Assembly: GCF_003334385.1 (NCBI RefSeq)
Contig: NZ_QOWN01000159.1
Strand: one strand, 5' to 3'
From: Escherichia coli
GTDB lineage: Bacteria > Pseudomonadota > Gammaproteobacteria > Enterobacterales > Enterobacteriaceae
Length of the DNA: 624 nt
Shown: positions 1 through 624 of the stretch, piece by piece
How positions within the stretch are numbered: position 1 is the first letter of the stretch
How the letters are laid out: each line of letters opens with the position of its first letter
Made by a program: the position numbers and the translations under genes
Notes under the pieces: model-generated
Seen by the model: only the letters and a program-made list of their open reading frames with translations
Databases searched by the model: none
Told to the model about the DNA's origin: nothing

Positions 1-624
1 AACGCGAGGCATCGTCTTAACGAGGCACCGAGGCGTCGCATTCTTCAGATGGTTCAACCCTTAAGTTAGCGCTTATGAGCAACACCTCCGCCCCTTCCGG
101 GGTATCCTGCAGGCGGATGCGTTCACAGGTTACGACAGGTTGTTCAGTGCAGAACGTGAAGGTGGTGCACTGACAGAAGTTGCGTGCTGGGCCCATGCCC
201 GGCGAAAAATCCACGATGTATACATCAGCAGCAAAAGTGCGACGGCAGAAGAAGCCCTGAAGCGAATCAGTGAACTGTACGCCATCGAGGATGAAATACG
301 GGGATTACCGGAGTCAGAGCGTCTTGCCGTCAGGCAGCAGCGAAGCAAAGTGTTACTGACGTCGCTGCATGAATGGATGGTGGAGAAGAATGGTACGCTG
401 TCGAAAAAATCCAGACTGGGCGAAGCGTTCAGCTATGTACTGAATCAGTGGGATGCCCTCTGTTATTACAGTGATGACGGTCTGGCGGAGGCGGATAATA
501 ATGCTGCGGAAAGAGCGCTTCGTGCAGTCTGTCTCGGAAAGAAAAACTCTTATGGCCTTTGTCAAATATTGAGCCCAAAAAGACCTTACGCAGCTCCGGG
601 AGCTTCGTTATATCGCGGATTAAA
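1..624 (+). mobile_element. IS66-family insertion sequence, internal portion only (no terminal inverted repeats or element boundaries visible in this window)
   Basis: The window is dominated by the IS66-type transposase coding sequence. No GTAAGCG-type IS66 terminus is found on either strand, so the element ends, if present, lie outside the window, or the copy is a truncated remnant. Confidence 0.65.
65..622 (+). CDS. IS66-family transposase (TnpC/ORF3-type, DDE_Tnp_IS66-like), partial internal fragment; open at the 3' window edge; possibly a degraded copy
   Basis: Frame 2 is open from the codon after TAA(62-64) to the window end. Translation: VSAYEQHLRPFRGILQADAFTGYDRLFSAEREGGALTEVACWAHARRKIHDVYISSKSATAEEALKRISELYAIEDEIRGLPESERLAVRQQRSKVLLTSLHEWMVEKNGTLSKKSRLGEAFSYVLNQWDALCYYSDDGLAEADNNAAERALRAVCLGKKNSYGLCQILSPKRPYAAPGASLYRGL. 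Family-typical motifs: LQADAFTGY (107-133), CWAHARRKI (185-211), ALKRISELYAIE.EIRG (254-304), DNNAAERALR (494-523), LGKKN (533-547). Codon usage is CTG/GCG-rich, typical of enterobacterial coding DNA. Family assignment is from memory of IS66 transposase consensus; no search was run. Homology is convincing from about 80 to about 547 and uncertain beyond. Confidence 0.85.

Follow-up and report, generated by a model that had tools for sequence, protein, structure and literature searches.

An apparent premature stop in an IS66-type transposase frame of Escherichia coli lies in the terminal repeat of an adjoining IS421 element

In the 624-nucleotide stretch of Escherichia coli DNA analysed here (the window), the reading frame that carries an IS66-type transposase is interrupted by a TAA codon at 62-64, raising the question of whether the stop is a nonsense lesion in a gene that runs on upstream, or whether homology to the transposase only begins downstream of it. 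An earlier note on this DNA had entertained both readings. The position and frame of the codon given there are borne out by translation: the frame from base 2 reads TRGIVLTRHRGVAFFRWFNP, the stop, VSAY, and then the IS66-type stretch EQHLRPFRGILQADAFTGY, and downstream of the TAA the same frame yields VSAYEQHLRPFRGILQADAFTGYDRLF. When stops are counted per frame, this TAA is the sole stop of the base-2 frame across all 624 bases. A frame that is open on either side of a single TAA is also the observation that favours a nonsense lesion, whereby an IS66-type gene would run through 1-64 and the TAA would replace a sense codon.

The window was compared by megablast with 72,556 plasmid records and 5,426 complete E. 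coli genomes, with thousands of matches resulting, the best of which span positions 77-624 only and are annotated as 'IS66-like element ISEc23 family transposase'. The reference for alignment was the intact ISEc23 of plasmid pC15-1a (NC_005327.1; locus L004), the tnpC gene of which has 537 codons (WP_000080200.1). Window 77-547 aligns with this element in the same frame at 470 of 471 nucleotides, and collinearity breaks abruptly at 76/77 and again at 548/549, with codon 319 starting at base 77 and codon 475 finishing at base 547. Nucleotide alignment to a full-length IS66 relative was the check proposed in the earlier note, and by that check homology stops at 76/77 instead of continuing through 1-64. 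The suggestion that homology truly begins near 70-80 was accurate, as both the nucleotide alignments and the profile NF033517 place its start at about 77, and the alignment to ISEc23 at 77/78. The profile match (E = 1e-48) covers positions 196-346 of 387 and begins at residue 4 of the 65-547 translation; its 166 bits fall short of the cut-off of 180 set for a whole protein, since the window contains no more than a fragment. The expectation that this position is mid-protein, and the copy not intact, likewise holds, given a start at codon 319 of a 537-codon gene.

What precedes base 77 has a different origin. Window 1-76 matches the collinear part of ISEc23 at 25 of 76 nucleotides, whereas it matches the right end of an annotated IS421 (locus L003) at 76 of 76. 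The upstream peptide, thought to resemble the region that precedes the HP(E/Q)QHL block of IS66 transposases, reaches a local BLOSUM62 score of 17 against ISEc23 residues 271-318, a score that rests on the dipeptide 'WF' and is equalled or exceeded in 1059 of 2000 shuffles of the peptide, such that the resemblance is at chance level. In the intact ISEc23 protein, the residues ahead of EQHL are ...WFAYSPNRQGKHP, or over a longer stretch ...TGRIWTYVRDDRNVGSSSPPAVWFAYSPNRQGKHP.

The IS421 end is found widely. Window 1-90 has matches at 8422 places in 2144 of the 5426 complete E. coli genomes, in unrelated genes that include mdtQ and a cobalt transporter gene, and at every inspected locus the match lies just downstream of a gene annotated as 'IS4-like element IS421 family transposase'. 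The IS421 transposase of the relatives matches the IS4 family profile NF033592 with 133 bits (cut-off 115). The inverted repeats of the element are perfect over 23 bp, CATAAGCGCTAACTTAAGGGTTG, a sequence that the window carries at 55-77 as its reverse complement; the same 23-mer is present at both ends of a 1339-bp element in L002, L003, L005 and L006. The left end of IS421 reads CATAAGCGCTAACTTAAGGGTTGTGGTATT. The IS421 transposase gene would be located 5' of the window and read towards it.

A nonsense-mutated pseudogene requires collinear homology on both sides of the stop, and the 25 of 76 nucleotides upstream set against 470 of 471 downstream do not provide it. Given that collinear homology is missing 5' of base 77, and that the score of the upstream peptide is one of chance, the nonsense-lesion reading is refuted, and the probability left to it is vanishingly small. 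The same 77 nucleotides form the IS421 end at thousands of unrelated sites, and within the IS421 terminal repeat CAACCCTTAAGTTAGCGCTTATG the TAA is invariant. Nor is the TAA a sequencing error, which the earlier note had raised as a way in which the lesion might be explained away. A lone stop in 25 codons of foreign, non-coding DNA is the chance expectation.

The identities and boundaries of three elements are thus laid out along the window (Table 1), ISEc23 homology being absent 5' of base 77, and there is very little doubt that the 624 nucleotides represent a junction fragment of nested insertion sequences, namely IS421, ISEc23 and ISEc45. One base at each boundary has two possible owners: G77 may be the last base of IS421 or the G of ISEc23 codon 319, and T548 is common to ISEc23 and ISEc45. 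The earlier reading missed the cause of the first break, an IS421 insertion, as well as the second break, made by ISEc45 at codon 475/476.

Table 1. Features of the 624-nucleotide window and the observation that identifies each
Feature	Position	Strand	Observation
IS421/IS186 (IS4 family) right (3', non-coding) end	1..77	+	76/76 identity to the right end in L003
IS421 23-bp terminal inverted repeat CAACCCTTAAGTTAGCGCTTATG	55..77	.	inverted 23-mer bounds the elements of relatives
TAA in CTTAAG of the IS421 terminal repeat	62..64	+	no codon of an IS66-type gene
ISEc23 (IS66 family) tnpC internal fragment, codons 319-475 of 537	78..547	+	470/471 nt to pC15-1a
ISEc45 (IS110 family) end, 3' side of its minus-strand transposase	548..624	-	continuity with L001 and L007

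At the 3' boundary, the identity of the interrupting element follows from two loci, L001 and L007, in which the sequence from position 548 runs on into an annotated ISEc45 transposase. Over 548-624 the window agrees with L007 at every position and with L001 at about 97% of them. In L001, ISEc23 resumes 1447 bp after the break with ...FMFFGSDHGG, the intervening segment (L001 3472-4918) being ISEc45. There are 863 occurrences of the ISEc45 end, spread over 616 genomes, and the ISEc23::ISEc45 junction is present in 342 of the 5426 complete E. coli genomes. The closest relative of window 77-624 is plasmid pSCU-107-1, which is identical over these positions (548/548) and in which ISEc45 is present and codons 1-475 are uninterrupted. 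As a side observation, the diverged IS66 relics of L008 and L009 also carry ISEc45 at the corresponding point, a recurrence that is suggestive of either site-specific targeting of IS66-family tnpC genes or a very old insertion. The non-coding portions of ISEc45 measure 253 nucleotides 3' of the transposase and 60 nucleotides 5' of it.

As for coding capacity, the ISEc23 remnant carries the QADAFTGY, CWAHARRK and NNAAERALR blocks and is devoid of N-terminal domains. In the intact protein of 537 amino acids, Pfam places a leucine zipper (LZ) domain at 60-130, a zinc finger at 138-182, DDE_Tnp_IS66 at 196-486, and a C-terminal element at 494-530, so that codons 319-475 amount to only the second half of the catalytic domain; of the LZ domain, zinc finger, full DDE_Tnp_IS66 and C-terminal element that make up a complete protein, the window holds residues 319-475 only. 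Of the catalytic residues of IS66 transposases, the first Asp presumably lies upstream of the break, and the second, together with the Glu, within the window. After the TAA, there is no start codon in frame before a TTG at 140. Judged from its sequence, the remnant is a dead gene fragment, as it lacks the N-terminal domains as well as the beginning of the DDE domain, and no start precedes the TTG at 140. A scan for promoters and terminators found nothing in 1-140 able to drive the truncated frame, the sole promoter-like site of the window being at 474-502, and Rfam at gathering thresholds gave no match in the window or in L001. An N-terminally truncated product driven from IS421 was also considered and is unsupported, with a first start at TTG 140, no predicted promoter upstream of it, and the N-terminal domains absent.

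Two short ORFs cross the IS421/ISEc23 junction, one of 32 amino acids on the plus strand (75-173) and one of 65 amino acids on the minus strand (17-214). The first of these starts at an ATG made by the IS421 terminus (TTATG). Both are taken as chance ORFs.

The two foreign flanks, the IS421 end at 1-77 and the ISEc45 end at 548-624, are each 77 nucleotides long, and each shares one base with ISEc23. This symmetry is suggestive of a short-read contig from a de Bruijn assembly with k=77, in which a unique segment is bounded by multi-copy repeats, and the ends of the window would then be assembly boundaries and not biological ones. The twin 77-nucleotide flanks could also be read as a sign that the join itself is an assembly artefact, with the IS421 end and ISEc23 not adjoining in the organism, and the fact that the junction is missing from the complete-genome collections points the same way. 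Against this, the k=77 words across 54-131 would hold both the orientation-specific base 54 and 54 nucleotides of ISEc23, so that reads would have to cover the junction, and finished plasmids carry IS421 at the same position. An artefactual join is for these reasons considered very improbable.

In the plasmid (72,556) and complete E. coli (5,426) collections, no record covers the window beyond 77-624 and none matches window 1-200 at more than 96.5% identity; the exact IS421/ISEc23 junction is absent from both. An exact scan with a 56-nucleotide, orientation-specific junction pattern found no occurrence in species-representative genomes or viral contigs.

How the junction arose can be proposed from the right-hand end that lies in the window. 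IS186/IS421 is an active E. coli element that targets GGGG(N6/N7)CCCC and duplicates the core and adjoining bases, and its palindromic target flanks allow it to enter a given site either way round (PMC5009759; PMC3045373). Of 59 sites, seven differ from the motif at one or two positions (PMC5009759). The perfect GGGG(N6/N7)CCCC motif does not occur anywhere in ISEc23. The site in the intact ISEc23 is GGAG-CAACAC-CTCC, with two mismatches among the eight flanking G/C positions, and that of the related IS66 element in L002 is GGGG-CAACAC-CTCC, with one mismatch. IS421/IS186 would have landed between codons 318 and 319 of ISEc23 tnpC, probably by normal IS186-type transposition into a G/C-flanked target. 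Counting against this are the two mismatches to the motif, the absence of the exact junction from the collections searched, and the one public contig that shares it, L006, where IS421 is in the other orientation and has an unrelated far flank. The ISEc45 insertion probably came first and that of IS421 second, since the closest relative, pSCU-107-1, has ISEc45 together with uninterrupted codons 1-475. Outside the window, the left junction would be expected to show the 10-bp duplication AGCAACACCT. Under simple insertion, this junction would read ...GGGGAAACACCCGGAGCAACACCT followed by CATAAGCGCTAACTTAAGGGTTGTGGTATT..., that is, tnpC codons 1-318 plus the duplicated AGCAACACCT; a retained 5' half would accordingly appear as ...ACACCCGGAGCAACACCT joined to the left IS421 end CATAAGCGCTAACTTAAGGGTTGTGGTATT, approximately 1.34 kb upstream.

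Such an arrangement exists at the corresponding point of a related gene. In the IncFII plasmids L002 (CP135651) and L005 (JBRERC010000002), IS421 is found at exactly the same position of an IS66 element that is identical to window 78-150 at 69 of 73 positions and then diverges. In both plasmids, IS421 occupies 2739-4077 (1339 bp), is accompanied by the 10-bp duplication GGCAACACCT, and stands between the rest of the gene and its 5' part. With regard to the earlier statement that the 5' portion had been lost, the copy is indeed not intact, but 'lost' may be the wrong word, as the 5' part is retained beyond IS421 in these two plasmids. The plasmids come from Japan and the Gambia, and in them, unlike in the window, the part of the IS66 element that lies right of IS421 stops at about 150 nucleotides (annotated 4080-4226).

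A third context was found with a shorter junction pattern in a single metagenome contig, L006 (OHVJ01002327.1), which is identical to window 55-624 (570/570). Here, IS421 (423-1761) points the other way, an arrangement that none of the complete E. coli genomes shows, and beyond its far end lies chromosomal hok/gef DNA that carries no matching duplication. Recombination between IS copies leaves the abutting end of a flank unchanged, and L006 would therefore represent an independent insertion in the opposite orientation, an inversion in place between the 23-bp repeats, or a mis-assembly; a hybrid is a further candidate.

A true loss of the 5' part, in which IS421 would no longer adjoin codons 1-318 of tnpC, is a sub-case of the IS421 insertion and not a competitor to it, and could have come about by an IS421-mediated adjacent deletion or by recombination between two IS421 copies. 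The IS421 of L006 speaks for loss, as it lies beside the same fragment and has hok/gef in place of the 5' gene part, with the matching duplication absent; this contig may, however, have been wrongly assembled through a multi-copy element. Loss is also favoured by an IS66 relic of 93.8% identity in L008, cut within about 4 nucleotides of the same point in the absence of IS421, whereas L002 and L005, which have IS421 in the same orientation and position as the window, keep both the 5' part and the 10-bp duplication. Loss of the 5' part is possible, though rather less likely than not.

The L008 relic (1526-2000, near atoB on the chromosome of E. coli S19-651) has ISEc45 at the same point as the window, and its 5' truncation within some 4 nucleotides of the IS421 junction of the window is preceded by AT-rich, unrelated DNA. 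The truncation is either a coincidence or what an old event at this point has left behind.

Taken as three contexts, the right end of IS421 abuts ISEc23 in the window and an IS66 relative of about 94% identity in L002 and L005, and the left end abuts ISEc23 in L006. It is conceivable, with a likelihood that we would put just short of even, that codon 318/319 of ISEc23-like genes is a recurrent IS186/IS421 target that several lineages have had entered independently, in one orientation or the other. If so, one IS family would repeatedly inactivate another at a fixed point, and the picture of how IS186 chooses its targets would gain a minor detail, a hot spot within transposase genes of the IS66 family.

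For the window itself, the implications are modest. Nesting of IS421, ISEc23 and ISEc45 is routine in E. coli plasmids and chromosomes; all three are catalogued insertion sequences, and their nesting is already known biology. The recognition that a seeming premature stop in a transposase gene marks the border of a second mobile element matters little beyond annotation, where the fragment is best labelled as nested IS remnants and not as a point-mutated gene.

Set beside known systems, the parts of the window are readily recognised. Positions 1-77 are identical to the right end of annotated IS186/IS421 copies, including the perfect 23-bp inverted repeat. Those relatives measure 1339 bp, have a single transposase gene of the IS4 family, and make 10-bp duplications at G/C-flanked targets, in agreement with published IS186 (PMC5009759), and the window differs from them in holding the last 77 nucleotides only. 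The ISEc23 target, GGAG-N6-CTCC, is an imperfect version of the IS186 target GGGG(N6/7)CCCC. Compared with the ISEc23 TnpC of pC15-1a, 157 of 537 codons are present here with conserved blocks that match those of TnpC, cut 5' by IS421 and 3' by ISEc45, and the remnant is, by this comparison of sequences, not a functional gene. In the ISEc23::ISEc45 composites, as exemplified by pSCU-107-1 and found in 342 of 5426 genomes, ISEc45 follows codon 475 in all, as it does in the window; these composites keep an uninterrupted 5' tnpC, whereas the copy in the window has IS421 at codon 318/319.
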